A stretch of 64,000 nt of DNA from IMG/VR virus record IMGVR_UViG_3300045988_183612; one strand, written 5' to 3'. The notes below the pieces were generated by a model. It saw nothing but the letters and a program-made list of their open reading frames with translations, did not search any database and was not told the origin of the DNA. This document shows, piece by piece, positions 3,369 to 47,034 of the stretch (its first letter is position 1; each line of letters starts with the position of its first letter). The stretch comes from a virus. Position numbers and translations under genes: made by a program.

Positions 3369-3421
3369 ATCGCAATTAAGCAAAAAACTCCATCCAACAA
3401 TAGTTGGTTGTGAGTAGTTCA
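3369..3421 (+). repeat. 55-bp structured intergenic repeat, copy 1
   Basis: ATCGCAATTAAGCAAAAAACTCCATCCAACAATAGTTGGTTGTGAGTAGTTCA. Contains an imperfect hairpin around AATAG and is followed by terminator 3427..3472. Confidence 0.7.
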
Positions 3422-3426
3422 GATAG

Positions 3427-3472
3427 AAAAAGACTTAGTATGTTTATAATATGTATCATACTAAGTCTTTTT
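3427..3472. terminator. bidirectional terminator
   Basis: Perfect 16-bp inverted repeat AAAAAGACTTAGTATG/CATACTAAGTCTTTTT with A-run and T-run flanks. It lies between convergent genes. Confidence 0.7.
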
Positions 3473-3474
3473 AT

Positions 3475-3873
3475 TTATTTTAAAATTTTATTCCATTCTG
3501 AATTTTTACAGATTAAATCTATGTCATCATCAGACATATTCAATAACATTTTTATTTCTTTTTTACCGTTTTCCGTAAAACACATAGCAGCTAAATATTG
3601 ATCAAAAGACATCCATAATTTATGTTTCTTTAGTTTAGAAATAATAAATAATTTTGCATATAATTTATCCTTAATATTATTAGGCATTATATTAACAAAT
3701 ACATTGTTTTTTATTGCTAAATCGGTCATTACATTTATATTAACCACATCGTTATGAGTATCTTTCCAATTAAAATGATTTTTTATATATTTGATAGACT
3801 CATTCTTTCCAACAAAAAACATTTTTCCATTTCCAAATTCAATTGAAAAAATATTAAGTTTGTTCATATTCAT
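3475..3873 (-). CDS. hypothetical protein (minus strand)
   Basis: 132-aa ORF with an AAGGAGAG RBS on the minus strand (rc of 3876..3890). A bidirectional terminator at 3427..3472 closes it. Confidence 0.55.
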   Translation of the reverse strand: MNMNKLNIFSIEFGNGKMFFVGKNESIKYIKNHFNWKDTHNDVVNINVMTDLAIKNNVFVNIMPNNIKDKLYAKLFIISKLKKHKLWMSFDQYLAAMCFTENGKKEIKMLLNMSDDDIDLICKNSEWNKILK

Positions 3874-3952
3874 TTTACTCTCCTTAATTTTACAATATTT
3901 AATAATATACTATATATAAATTAAATTTACAAATTTATATCCAATTTTATTT

Positions 3953-3963
3953 TTCTGACATAT
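3953..3963 (+). promoter_or_regulatory. TTCTGTCATAT-family motif (CTGACAT variant)
   Basis: TTCTGACATAT, 45 bp before ATG 4000. Confidence 0.5.
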
Positions 3964-3999
3964 ATATTACATCAATTAATTAAAGGAGGCGTATTCAAA

Positions 4000-4200
4000 A
4001 TGATAGAACATATTGTTTTTAATGTGCAGGCAAATAAAACTTTATCTGATACTAATGAATCATTCTATGGATGCTGGACAAAAGGACATACATATGAATG
4101 TATTGCATTTGGCGATTTCGTATCAGTAAGAAATGATTCTGGGATGTATACACAATTTACAAAAGAAGCTTTCGAAAAATTTAAAGATAAAATTGCGTAA
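4000..4200 (+). CDS. hypothetical protein (66 aa)
   Basis: AAAGGAGG RBS. Upstream motif variant at 3953. Confidence 0.5.
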   Translation: MIEHIVFNVQANKTLSDTNESFYGCWTKGHTYECIAFGDFVSVRNDSGMYTQFTKEAFEKFKDKIA

Positions 4201-4216
4201 TATATAAGGAGGATTT

Positions 4217-45211: not shown

Positions 45212-45967
45212 GATATCGATAGTGATCTTGCTCTTGGAGTAAGAGAAAAGACAATTGAGTATGTAAGAGCTAAATATGGTAGTGAAGCTGTTGTTGGAAT
45301 TATTACAGAATCAAGACAGCAGGCTAAAGGTGCTATCAGAGATGCTGCAAGATATTATGGAAAGAAAGCCTATGATGATGAAAAGAAATTCTTATCTTTA
45401 GGAGATCAGATTCGTAAGAAAGTGCCTGCTAAAGCAACTAATTTTGAAGATATTGTTGGCATGAAAGATACTAATAGGGTTGATGAATTAGGCATTAATA
45501 TTCAGGACAGCGTTTCTTTGTTAGATTTTTTAAAGGATGAATATAATAGTAATCCAGATGCTATTTCTATTCTTAATATTGCAGCTCATTGCGAAGGTAT
45601 GCTTACGACATACGGACAACATGCCGCAGGTGTTATTATTTATGATAGTAATGATGTTACTGATTATATTCCTATTAGAGATGGAAAAAAGGGAATTAAA
45701 ACTACAGAAATGGACATGATTCAGTGCGAAGCTAATGGATTATTAAAAATGGATTTTCTTGGATTAAAAACTCTTACAATTATTACTGACACACTCAGAA
45801 TGATTCAGAGAGATACAGGAGAAGTAATTGATGTAATGAATATTCCATTAGAGGGTCCTAAAGCTGATAAGGTATACAAAGAAGTATATGCAAAAGGAAG
45901 AACTAAGAATGTTTTCCAGTTTGAGTCAGCCGGTATGAGGAATAACCTTAAGAAGTTATGCTCATAG
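45212..45967 (+). CDS. dnaE: DNA polymerase III alpha exon 2 (palm region)
   Basis: DIDSDLALGVREKTIEYVRAKYG...AIRDAARYYG, MDFLGLKTL and VFQFESAGMRNNLKKL match the DnaE palm region. Ends in TAG-TGA, followed by a terminator. Confidence 0.8.
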   Translation, partial: DIDSDLALGVREKTIEYVRAKYGSEAVVGIITESRQQAKGAIRDAARYYGKKAYDDEKKFLSLGDQIRKKVPAKATNFEDIVGMKDTNRVDELGINIQDSVSLLDFLKDEYNSNPDAISILNIAAHCEGMLTTYGQHAAGVIIYDSNDVTDYIPIRDGKKGIKTTEMDMIQCEANGLLKMDFLGLKTLTIITDTLRMIQRDTGEVIDVMNIPLEGPKADKVYKEVYAKGRTKNVFQFESAGMRNNLKKLCS

Positions 45968-45996
45968 TGAATAGTTAATTGAATATTTTGTATTAA

Positions 45997-46026
45997 AACG
46001 CATGTCATTATGATGTGCGTTTTTTC
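45997..46026 (+). terminator. rho-independent terminator after dnaE exon 2
   Basis: ACGCATGTCATTATGATGTGCGTTTTTT (stem includes G-U pairs). Confidence 0.6.
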
Positions 46027-46034
46027 TGTCATAT
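46024..46034 (+). promoter_or_regulatory. TTCTGTCATAT-family motif
   Basis: TTCTGTCATAT, 46 bp before ATG 46072. Confidence 0.6.
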
Positions 46035-46071
46035 TTCTTTTAAATTATAATAAATAAAGGAGAACAATATT

Positions 46072-46308
46072 ATGGAGAAAAATAATAAAACTCTTATGCA
46101 ACGGTTTATTGAGGCTGGATATTCTGCAAAAGATATATTTCACCATGAATCAGATTTATATGTATTTGTCACACCAATTACTACTAGAGTTATTAATGAA
46201 TGGTGTAAGGAAACAGGATTTGATAAGGATTGGCATTGCCCTATATTCACAGATCAGATAACTGAGAAACAAATGTATGATTGTGCATTCCAATACTATA
46301 CTGAATAA
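46072..46308 (+). CDS. hypothetical protein (78 aa)
   Basis: AAAGGAGAAC RBS, motif at 46024. Confidence 0.5.
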   Translation: MEKNNKTLMQRFIEAGYSAKDIFHHESDLYVFVTPITTRVINEWCKETGFDKDWHCPIFTDQITEKQMYDCAFQYYTE

Positions 46309-46335
46309 AAATAAATAAAGTTTAAGGAGAAAAAT

Positions 46336-46968
46336 ATGGCAATATTTCATGAACATTTACAATACCATCCAGACACAGTAGAGAAACATAAAATTACAGA
46401 TAAAGAAATCAAATTTTTGTCTGATTTGCAGCATGAATTAAATACACAGGACCATGTAGGACAAGCTGATCCTCGATTTTGGGTTATTATGGGAAAAGAA
46501 AAGTGTATTGTTCCAGAAGGATATGAAGACGGTGTAACATTAATAGATAATGAGGCAGTCGAAGAAATTGCTGATAATATTGATGATGCAATTGTATTTT
46601 TTAATAAGGAATTTGAAGAAAACGGTGATGCTTGGGTTATTTCAAAAGAATATGATGGATATTATGTTACATCAAAAGAAGATAATGATTACGAGGAATG
46701 TTTAGCTGATCTTGATGATTTAAAGACTTGGTTGAATGAGCATAATTATGGCAGATATACTTTCACCTGTTATGCATATAGAGATAAAATTTATGAAAAC
46801 ACAATGTTTTTAACAGAAAAGGCAGCCGCTGAACATCTAAAGGCAAATCGTTATCATTACGATGAGTACGCTCATACCTATGCTATGACTGCATGGAGAA
46901 GTCCTGAAGTAGAAGATATCATTAAGATTTTACAGTCAGTAGATTTTTCTGCTATTGTTAGAAAATAA
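46336..46968 (+). CDS. acidic hypothetical protein
   Basis: AAGGAG RBS. Confidence 0.5.
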   Translation: MAIFHEHLQYHPDTVEKHKITDKEIKFLSDLQHELNTQDHVGQADPRFWVIMGKEKCIVPEGYEDGVTLIDNEAVEEIADNIDDAIVFFNKEFEENGDAWVISKEYDGYYVTSKEDNDYEECLADLDDLKTWLNEHNYGRYTFTCYAYRDKIYENTMFLTEKAAAEHLKANRYHYDEYAHTYAMTAWRSPEVEDIIKILQSVDFSAIVRK

Positions 46969-46980
46969 AAGAATGATATT

Positions 46981-47034
46981 ATCGCAATTAAGCAAAAAAC
47001 CCCAACCGACAATAGCCGGTTGTGGGTAGTTCAA
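46981..47034 (+). repeat. 55-bp structured intergenic repeat, copy 5
   Basis: ATCGCAATTAAGCAAAAAACCCCAACCGACAATAGCCGGTTGTGGGTAGTTCA, in the leader of the nucleotidyltransferase gene. Base changes in the stem are partly compensatory. Confidence 0.7.

Follow-up and report, generated by a model that had tools for sequence, protein, structure and literature searches.

The window analysed here, the whole 64-kb stretch of viral DNA under IMG/VR record IMGVR_UViG_3300045988_183612, carries five copies of a short repeat that folds into a hairpin. An initial annotation, made from the letters alone, proposed that this repeat is a novel cis-regulatory RNA acting in processing, antitermination or as a riboregulator, or else a protein-binding site. 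Is it, then, a new kind of leader RNA of phages, or does it have some other provenance? Our comparisons find no support for a dedicated regulatory RNA. In very high likelihood each copy is instead a non-coding, single-hairpin miniature, hereafter a solo, of an IS200/IS605 insertion sequence, for which no regulatory role needs to be invoked. Both halves of the repeat are homologous to the ends of such an element, its boundaries are exact, and the interior of the element, comprising tnpB and the guide-RNA scaffold, is absent. The copies are thus in all probability debris left by a transposon, not a new regulatory RNA. The full-length, tnpB-only parent resides in sister genomes of a gut phage lineage of ~320-460 kb, and a version with both tnpA and tnpB is found in Lachnospiraceae-type contigs.

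Five single-hairpin copies in the window

A covariance model trained on seven copies and run over the 64-kb window with filters off returns exactly five matches (3365-3427, 17090-17153, 29047-29110, 31132-31195 and 46977-47039), all on the + strand, with scores of 77-83 bits against 16.4 bits for the next-best hit. The list of open reading frames (ORFs) places all five between genes, and the copy number, strand and intergenic position originally reported are confirmed. Simple pattern searches with the 20-nt 5' half and with the 33-nt 3' half (the latter at up to 3 mismatches) recover three matches each, where none is expected by chance. The internal hairpin also holds: CUCCA.CCGAC and GUCGG.UG.GAG, separated by a 4-nt loop, form 10-11 pairs interrupted by a U.U mismatch and a bulged U, and the DNA-folding z-scores of the window copies range from -1.5 to -3.9.

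The window copies are gene-less, 52-53 nt long, and share one layout: TTAT as the transposon-adjacent motif, a left-end leader of 17-18 nt, the guide tetranucleotide AAAA at the foot of the hairpin, a single hairpin and a TAGT-TCAT tip. With a slash marking the element boundary, the 5' half reads TTAT/CGMA..AGCAAGAAAA and is followed by the hairpin, and the 3' half reads AAACTCCATCCGAC-NNNN-GTCGGTTGTGAG-TAGTTCAT. The leader comes in two variants, CGCAATTAAGCAA.. and CGAAGAATAGCAAG.., both of which also occur in the left ends of longer elements. The five solos are as follows:

3367..3422, + strand: solo c1; TTAT at 3367-3370, leader CGCAATTAAGCAAAAAA, hairpin 3388-3414, right-end tip TAGTTCAG
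17092..17148, + strand: solo c2; TTAT at 17092-17095, element 17096-17148, hairpin 17114-17140 with a C.A mismatch
29049..29105, + strand: solo c3; TTAT at 29049-29052, element 29053-29105, hairpin 29071-29097
31134..31190, + strand: solo c4; TTAT at 31134-31137, element 31138-31190, hairpin 31156-31182, degenerate in mid-stem
46979..47034, + strand: solo c5; TTAT at 46979-46982, element 46983-47034, hairpin 47000-47026

The terminal TCAT is replaced by TCAG in c1 and by TCAA in c5, and the tetranucleotide at the guide position of c4 is AAAG.

The repeat fuses the two ends of an IS200/IS605 element

A pattern scan of metagenome and genome collections yielded 91 loci containing 101 model matches, 66 of them distinct, with large contigs being represented by fragments only. 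These loci together comprise 67 solo instances, distributed over ~20 distinct sites, besides 36 right ends and 10 left ends. In bacterial contigs from rumen and gut, of which several derive from a Lachnospiraceae metagenome-assembled genome (MAG), the match is limited to the 3' 43 nt; there, these nucleotides end a longer repeat with at least 120 nt conserved upstream, and similarity stops right after ...TAGTTCAT in more than 20 different flanks. Upstream of these bacterial right ends lie a divergently oriented gene for an IS200-type Y1 transposase (Y1_Tnp, E 2.7e-35) and a gene for a TnpB of 461-496 aa (OrfB_IS605 with a Cas12f1-like TNB); in loci L013 and L094, both Y1_Tnp and OrfB_IS605 are linked to the ends. 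The same core, AAACTCCATCCGAC-NNNN-GTCGGTTGTG[A/G]G-TAGTTCAT, is found in 36 right ends from bacteria and phages alike, with similarity again stopping after TCAT. Thus, the right-end homology, together with the upstream tnpA and tnpB genes, identifies the 3' half of the repeat as the right end of an IS200/IS605 insertion sequence.

The 5' half is explained by the other end of the same element. A tnpB-only version, in which a left end, tnpB (462 aa, with the RuvC D/E/D residues kept) and a right end follow one another (L029, L055 and L039), is found in sister phage contigs of 137-400 kb; L029 serves as the example:

3113-3170, minus strand of locus L029: left end
3063-1678, minus strand of locus L029: tnpB
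1585-1648, minus strand of locus L029: right end

The left ends of phage and host elements consist of TTAT/CG..GCAAGAAAA, with ~18 nt after TTAT, the same hairpin and ATGAATTGC, the stem being longer in the bacterial element. By this homology, the 5' half of the repeat in the window is the left-end leader. In agreement, when the 1.59-kb phage element is compared with the window by blastn, only element positions ~4-57 and ~1547-1589 match, and both do so at each copy, while a tblastn search of the 64-kb window finds neither tnpA nor tnpB. The boundaries follow from a clean pair of an empty site (L015, ..AGATCAT/AGAAAA..) and a filled one (L039, ..AGATTAT/[IS]/AGAGCG..), which shows that the element starts after TTAT, ends in TCAT and duplicates nothing. 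The spacing is equally constant: every solo and every left end has TTAT 17-18 nt 5' of the hairpin foot, and TCAT ends 8 nt 3' of the foot in 36/36 right ends.

The TnpB proteins of this clade (L029 1678-3063 on the minus strand, L039 7307-8692 and L013 876-2258) carry the RuvC D/E/D motifs IDPG, EESYTSK and NADINGA and have no cysteines at the usual zinc-finger position; a sequence search of the phage TnpB against solved structures returned no relative. TnpA relatives with 59% identity occur in viral contigs L104-L106, which have no copy of the element. The autonomous version with tnpA and tnpB stands at many contig ends of the rumen Lachnospiraceae MAG RUG14672 (L090, L092, L094, L096, L099-L101), where it breaks the assembly, and a contig binned in the human Clostridia MAG HGM12814 (L095) has a solo with phage-like flanks; the occurrences in these two MAGs give a weak indication of the phages' host range. 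Solos with another leader, TTAT/AAATC.TTAG.GAGAAA, lie in GC-richer flanks that are not phage-like (L054 140-203 on the minus strand, L086 464-527), indicating that one-hairpin solos arise in another lineage of the element family too.

A reduction series from the full element to the solo

The region of the parent element upstream of the right-end hairpin, which overlaps the end of tnpB, is predicted to fold into several stems with 40 pairs, eight of which are compensatory between the phage and bacterial versions, as expected for the scaffold of a TnpB guide RNA (PMC8612924, PMC10055086). The repeat hairpin would then double as the last stem of an RNA running through the right end of the tnpB elements. 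The window copies keep only this last stem, ~35 nt of a scaffold of ~150 nt. Between these extremes stand gene-less elements of ~240 nt in which the two hairpins, the final 23 codons of tnpB and the structured RNA region in full are retained:

1516-1760, minus strand of locus L017: ~240-nt gene-less element
2952-3195, minus strand of locus L059: ~240-nt gene-less element

We regard both as candidate non-autonomous elements, from which a guide RNA would still be made. The phage lineage accordingly displays a reduction series of ~1.6 kb, 240 nt and 53 nt. One such 240-nt element is followed by different DNA after its right end in two loci (L058 4050-4130 and L020 2740-2760), with 73 extra nt in L058, and this rearrangement begins exactly at the TCAT boundary.

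The stem is constrained in intact ends and relaxed in the solos

Substitutions matched across the stem had been taken as a sign of selection on RNA or DNA secondary structure. Among the five window copies, three stem pairs are indeed changed on both sides, but four cells are broken, and across all model matches the number of covarying pairs is not above a shuffle control (98/500). The pairing register itself is specific, with 95.3% of cells paired over all model matches as against 22-52% when the partners are slid. Of 330 pair cells in intact ends, left and right taken together, 312 are Watson-Crick, 16 G.T, none A.C and 2 other combinations, versus 20 A.C and 9 other mismatches among the 330 of the solos (Fisher p = 2.6e-7, a value that overstates independence because all the sequences are related by descent). 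The presence of 16 G.T and the absence of A.C in the intact ends mark the hairpin of the top (+) strand as the selected object. Hence, the claim of structural selection stands for the functional relatives; the solos are decaying (29/330 broken cells against 2/330 in intact ends). The stem is under relaxed constraint in the solos, and the covariation seen earlier is inherited from functional transposon ends.

Divergence between orthologous solos gives a similar picture: it averages 3.3%, as compared to 2.8% and 5.3% in the two 400-nt flanks, which are largely coding, and at c2, c3 and c5 it reaches 4.4-7.8% against 0.6-2.5% in the flanks. The proposed protein-binding site survives in kind, in that the hairpin is homologous to the subterminal palindrome that a Y1 TnpA would read on single-stranded DNA.

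Gain, loss and junction shifts between related phages

Solos are present or absent among phages that are 95-99% identical. The near-identical viral contig IMGVR_UViG_3300045988_182851 has the orthologous copies and two more, and two sites that are occupied in relatives are empty in the window:

38431..38441, + strand: unoccupied site A; TTAT TAATTAT / TAGGAG, solo absent in the window
48621..48805, + strand: unoccupied site B; TTAT at 48621-48624, then AAATAACTTTAT; pseudo-terminal TTTAT ending at 48805

Site A, upstream of a putative small P-loop kinase-like gene, is filled in all relatives covering it (7 contigs; L001/L006, L018, L033, L046, L050, L052, L061, L079), where it reads TTAY/CGAAGAATTGCAAG...TAGTTCAT/TAGGAG. 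The flanks are 99.5% identical on the left and 94-97% on the right, and this switch of identity across the site indicates that recombination between lineages was involved. Site B exists in three states, namely empty (the window, L033 and L040), with a solo after TTAT (L023), and with a solo plus a loss of ~190 nt (L024 and L046) that runs to a GTTATTCAT motif ending at 48805 in window coordinates. The solo of L023 matches, at 57/57 positions, the allele that another genome has at site A, the private variant AATTGC included, and the simplest reading of this identity is that a solo was copied from a solo. At c3, the relatives L078 and L085 have the element joined to a TTAT 13 nt further upstream. 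All four junction shifts observed end at T[T/C]AT, the expected Y1 cut motif, which is indirect evidence that TnpA acted on solos; slippage in AT-rich DNA is an alternative explanation for them.

Genomic context of the solos

The window contains a promoter-like motif, TTTTTTCTGTCATAT, with 44 sites within one mismatch of TTCTGTCATAT against 3.7 expected, 38 of them on the + strand (including those at 5709, 11002, 14146, 21344, 25467, 29208, 32981 and 36961). For 19/29 core matches on the + strand, an ATG ORF starts 21-41 nt downstream, and the motif is probably the phage's own promoter type, unlike sigma-70 promoters in look. Three copies had been placed between the motif and a start codon. 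This applies to two of them, each with a TTCTGTCATAT-like motif: c2, between the motif at 17066-17076 and the ATG of a UvrD-like gene at 17181, and c4, between the motif at 31084-31094 and the ATG of a flotillin-like gene at 31224. It does not extend to c5, which has no nearby motif (the closest upstream is at 46024) and lies 12 nt past the stop of ORF 46336-46968, with a gene for an RlaP-type nucleotidyltransferase starting at 47057. As compared to normal leaders, which extend 21-41 nt past the motif, the two leaders bearing solos measure 105 and 130 nt, as expected for insertions.

The remaining two copies are followed by terminators, as first described. Solo c1 sits 4 nt past the stop of ORF 2647-3363 and directly before a bidirectional 16-bp hairpin at ~3427-3472, whose 14-nt loop causes a simple scan to overlook it. 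Solo c3 has a motif variant upstream (28994-29004) and a terminator downstream (29131-29158).

The genes downstream of the copies (a helicase, a flotillin, a nucleotidyltransferase, the kinase-like gene and small ORFs) have no common functional theme. In viral contigs, homologues of the UvrD-like protein (43% identity) and of the flotillin (45-74%) have no element and are unalignable at the DNA level; since these distant homologues of the neighbouring genes occur without it, the element tracks the genome lineage and not the genes. A flotillin-like protein that is 99% identical is encoded in a 244-kb viral contig (L007 9700-10060 against window 31020-31260), where the upstream DNA is unrelated and has no solo. 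This shared gene suggests a recent transfer between phages. We regard the leader position of the solos as a by-product, as expected of insertions tolerated in a densely packed phage genome.

Nearly all genes of the window, which derives from a very large gut phage with a genome exceeding 300 kb, are on the + strand, its GC content is 26-31%, and the GC skew of the + strand is positive throughout. The uniform orientation of the copies under this skew is consistent with the lagging-strand-template bias of IS200/IS605 insertions (PMC5027513). Selection may also have contributed to it, because a reversed solo would put a hairpin and U-tract terminator into the leader.

DNA polymerase III alpha is split over three ORFs, 42993-44834, 45209-45967 and 51639-53324, which contain, in this order, the PHP domain with the start of the NTPase domain, the middle part, and the finger, HHH and OB regions. 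The first gap is ~375 nt and the second ~5.6 kb of unrelated genes, including solo c5 and the RlaP-type nucleotidyltransferase; no intron family was detected. The regions 4217-10980 and 21862-25444 encode proteins that are unusual for a phage: a PARP-like protein, an HD-GYP-type HD domain protein, a GGDEF cyclase, a PBP1A-like transglycosylase/transpeptidase, RecJ-like and RecA proteins, and two UvrD-like helicases.

Origin and possible mobility of the solos

We propose that the left end of the parent would be cut after TTAT and the right end after TCAT, the hairpin being read by the Y1 TnpA on the single-stranded top strand. The hairpin segments at the left and the right end, ~30 nt each, would serve as direct repeats, and recombination or replication slippage between them would generate solos by deleting tnpB along with the guide-RNA scaffold; the ~240-nt forms might represent intermediates on this path. 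The solos would still be at least partial substrates for TnpA acting in trans, probably supplied by host copies, and such a trans-acting enzyme would account for both the new insertion identical to another solo and the junction shifts ending in T[T/C]AT. We entertain only tentatively, and with considerable doubt, the further idea that the 53-nt solo is a working transposable unit moved by a Y1 transposase or else persists as an allele resistant to TnpB homing. As a resistant allele, the solo may keep TTAT apart from the old target and thereby make the site immune to cleavage by the TnpB and guide RNA of sister genomes, which would be a cheap defence against the homing drive of the transposon. 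A 53-nt unit with one hairpin, if mobile, would be among the smallest transposable units of which we are aware.

Several points weigh against this account, in addition to the common descent that affects the pair-cell statistics. Lying in leaders or 3' regions, the copies are certain to be transcribed and may have acquired an effect on mRNA stability or translation. The empty alleles have 7 nt (site A) or 12 nt (site B) of extra sequence, ending in TTAT, that has no counterpart in the filled alleles. No tnpA is present in any phage locus examined, and among the loci examined no site is occupied by a full element in one phage and by a solo in a second, so that the proposed deletion in situ is not observed directly. 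Lastly, the known TnpA transpososome engages two hairpins, one per monomer (PMC3201880), which makes the excision of a one-hairpin unit hard to explain.

Alternative explanations

A dedicated cis-regulatory RNA, or a transposon end exapted as one, would have its A-rich leader and hairpin bound by a phage protein or nuclease and would control the stability, processing, antitermination or translation of downstream messages. It would explain why all copies are on the transcribed strand in leaders and 3' regions, two of them between a promoter-like motif and a start codon, why most copies form a better-folding hairpin than shuffled sequence does, with some pairs changing on both sides, and why orthologous copies persist over many related contigs. 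We nevertheless consider it improbable. Homology to transposon ends already explains both halves; there is no Rfam family, with no match in the window at the gathering score and only chance-level hits around c5 at a permissive E-value; and the solos, with 29/330 broken cells against 2/330 in intact ends, are no better conserved than their flanks. Neither does the element behave as a fixed part of the genes that it would regulate: the window has no solo before the kinase-like gene, where all 7 contigs covering the site have one, a 99%-identical flotillin gene elsewhere has no such leader, and the downstream genes lack a common theme. The covarying pairs, being no more numerous than in the shuffle control, do not restore the case. 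A different RNA-based reading holds that the copies are stand-alone TnpB guide RNAs, in which the last scaffold stem and 16-20 nt of downstream guide would be loaded into a TnpB produced elsewhere by the phage or the host, directing cleavage or repression of DNA. The structured region with its 40 predicted and 8 compensatory pairs has the hairpin as its 3'-terminal stem, the guide of TnpB elements lies immediately 3' of the right end (PMC8612924, PMC10055086), and scaffold-keeping derivatives of ~240 nt exist in sister genomes. However, only ~35 of ~150 nt of the scaffold are kept, its upstream stems being replaced by left-end sequence, the 64-kb window has no tnpB, the would-be guides are merely the local flanks, and the decay of the stem speaks against use, leaving this reading very unlikely.

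Read on the minus strand, the repeat resembles an intrinsic terminator or the 3' end of an antisense small RNA, with TTTTCTTGC after a GC-rich hairpin. The Rfam alignments below threshold to MicC and Ref84, which involve their terminator parts, are indeed on that strand, the 20 C.A mismatch cells of the solos become G.U there, and the single minus-strand gene in the vicinity (3475-3873) has c1 downstream of it. Against this, the intact ends with their 16 G.T and no A.C on the + strand show that the latter is the strand under selection, 4/5 copies have no minus-strand gene or promoter-like motif upstream, and the conserved flanks are explained by the transposon ends; the terminator-like look more likely explains the absence of reverse-oriented insertions. 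We therefore give this possibility hardly any credence. Other candidates were discarded outright. A riboswitch or other known RNA family finds no Rfam match at the gathering score. The sharp ..AT boundary with an A seven nt upstream prompted consideration of the 3' end of a group II intron (domains V/VI), but the bacterial elements match no intron family and their upstream ORFs are TnpA and TnpB, which eliminated this candidate. A CRISPR-repeat mimic and a nut-like antiterminator were dropped once transposon ends explained both halves.

Relationship to known elements

Among characterized elements, IS608 offers the closest points of reference, in that TTAC, the cleavage site, is placed 19 nt 5' of the hairpin at the left end and TCAA 10 nt 3' of the one at the right end, and each hairpin foot has a guide tetranucleotide on its 5' side (PMC3201880). 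The element described here likewise bears an imperfect subterminal hairpin on the top strand at either end, inserts 3' of a tetranucleotide without duplication, and has a guide tetranucleotide 5' of the foot. It differs in the insertion motif (TTAT instead of TTAC), the right-end motif (TCAT instead of TCAA) and the hairpin spacing (17-18 nt and 8 nt instead of 19 nt and 10 nt). As in the IS200/IS605 family at large, it is linked to Y1 TnpA and TnpB and is biased in orientation; in contrast to the members of that family, including the tnpB-only IS1341-type, the window copies are devoid of genes, have a single hairpin in place of two, and measure just 52-53 nt.

The PATEs (palindrome-associated transposable elements) are gene-less IS200/IS605 derivatives that often still encode a guide RNA (PMC10055086). 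Like the window copies, they are non-autonomous, keep transposon ends and depend on TnpA in trans. PATEs have separate left and right hairpins, as do the elements of L017 and L059, whereas the window copies have been reduced to one shared hairpin and no longer contain the guide-RNA scaffold. Short, dispersed intergenic imperfect palindromes tied to IS200/IS605 ends and a Y1 enzyme are also known as the REP/REPIN-RAYT systems, which the solos resemble. Nevertheless, the solos have no GTAG-type head, are low in copy number and have a parent insertion sequence that is still identifiable, and the 64-kb window contains no RAYT/TnpA gene and no inverted doublets. With the TnpB guide RNAs (omega RNA or reRNA), the window copies share only the 3'-terminal stem, the multi-stem scaffold being lost and no tnpB being nearby. 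Overall, the parent ranks as a regular IS200/IS605 member, the 240-nt forms as PATE-like, and the solos as comparable in kind to REP sequences.

Implications

These observations remove a false lead, in that what looked like a conserved 'structured RNA' in phage leaders represents the collapsed ends of a TnpB-type insertion sequence. They further indicate that IS200/IS605 elements and their reduction series populate a lineage of 320-460 kb gut phages, that TTAT is the probable target motif of this TnpB clade, and that the phages are weakly linked to Clostridia/Lachnospiraceae hosts carrying the autonomous version. Mobility of a one-hairpin unit, if true, would challenge the two-hairpin model of the transpososome and would offer a minimal substrate for studies of single-strand transposition.

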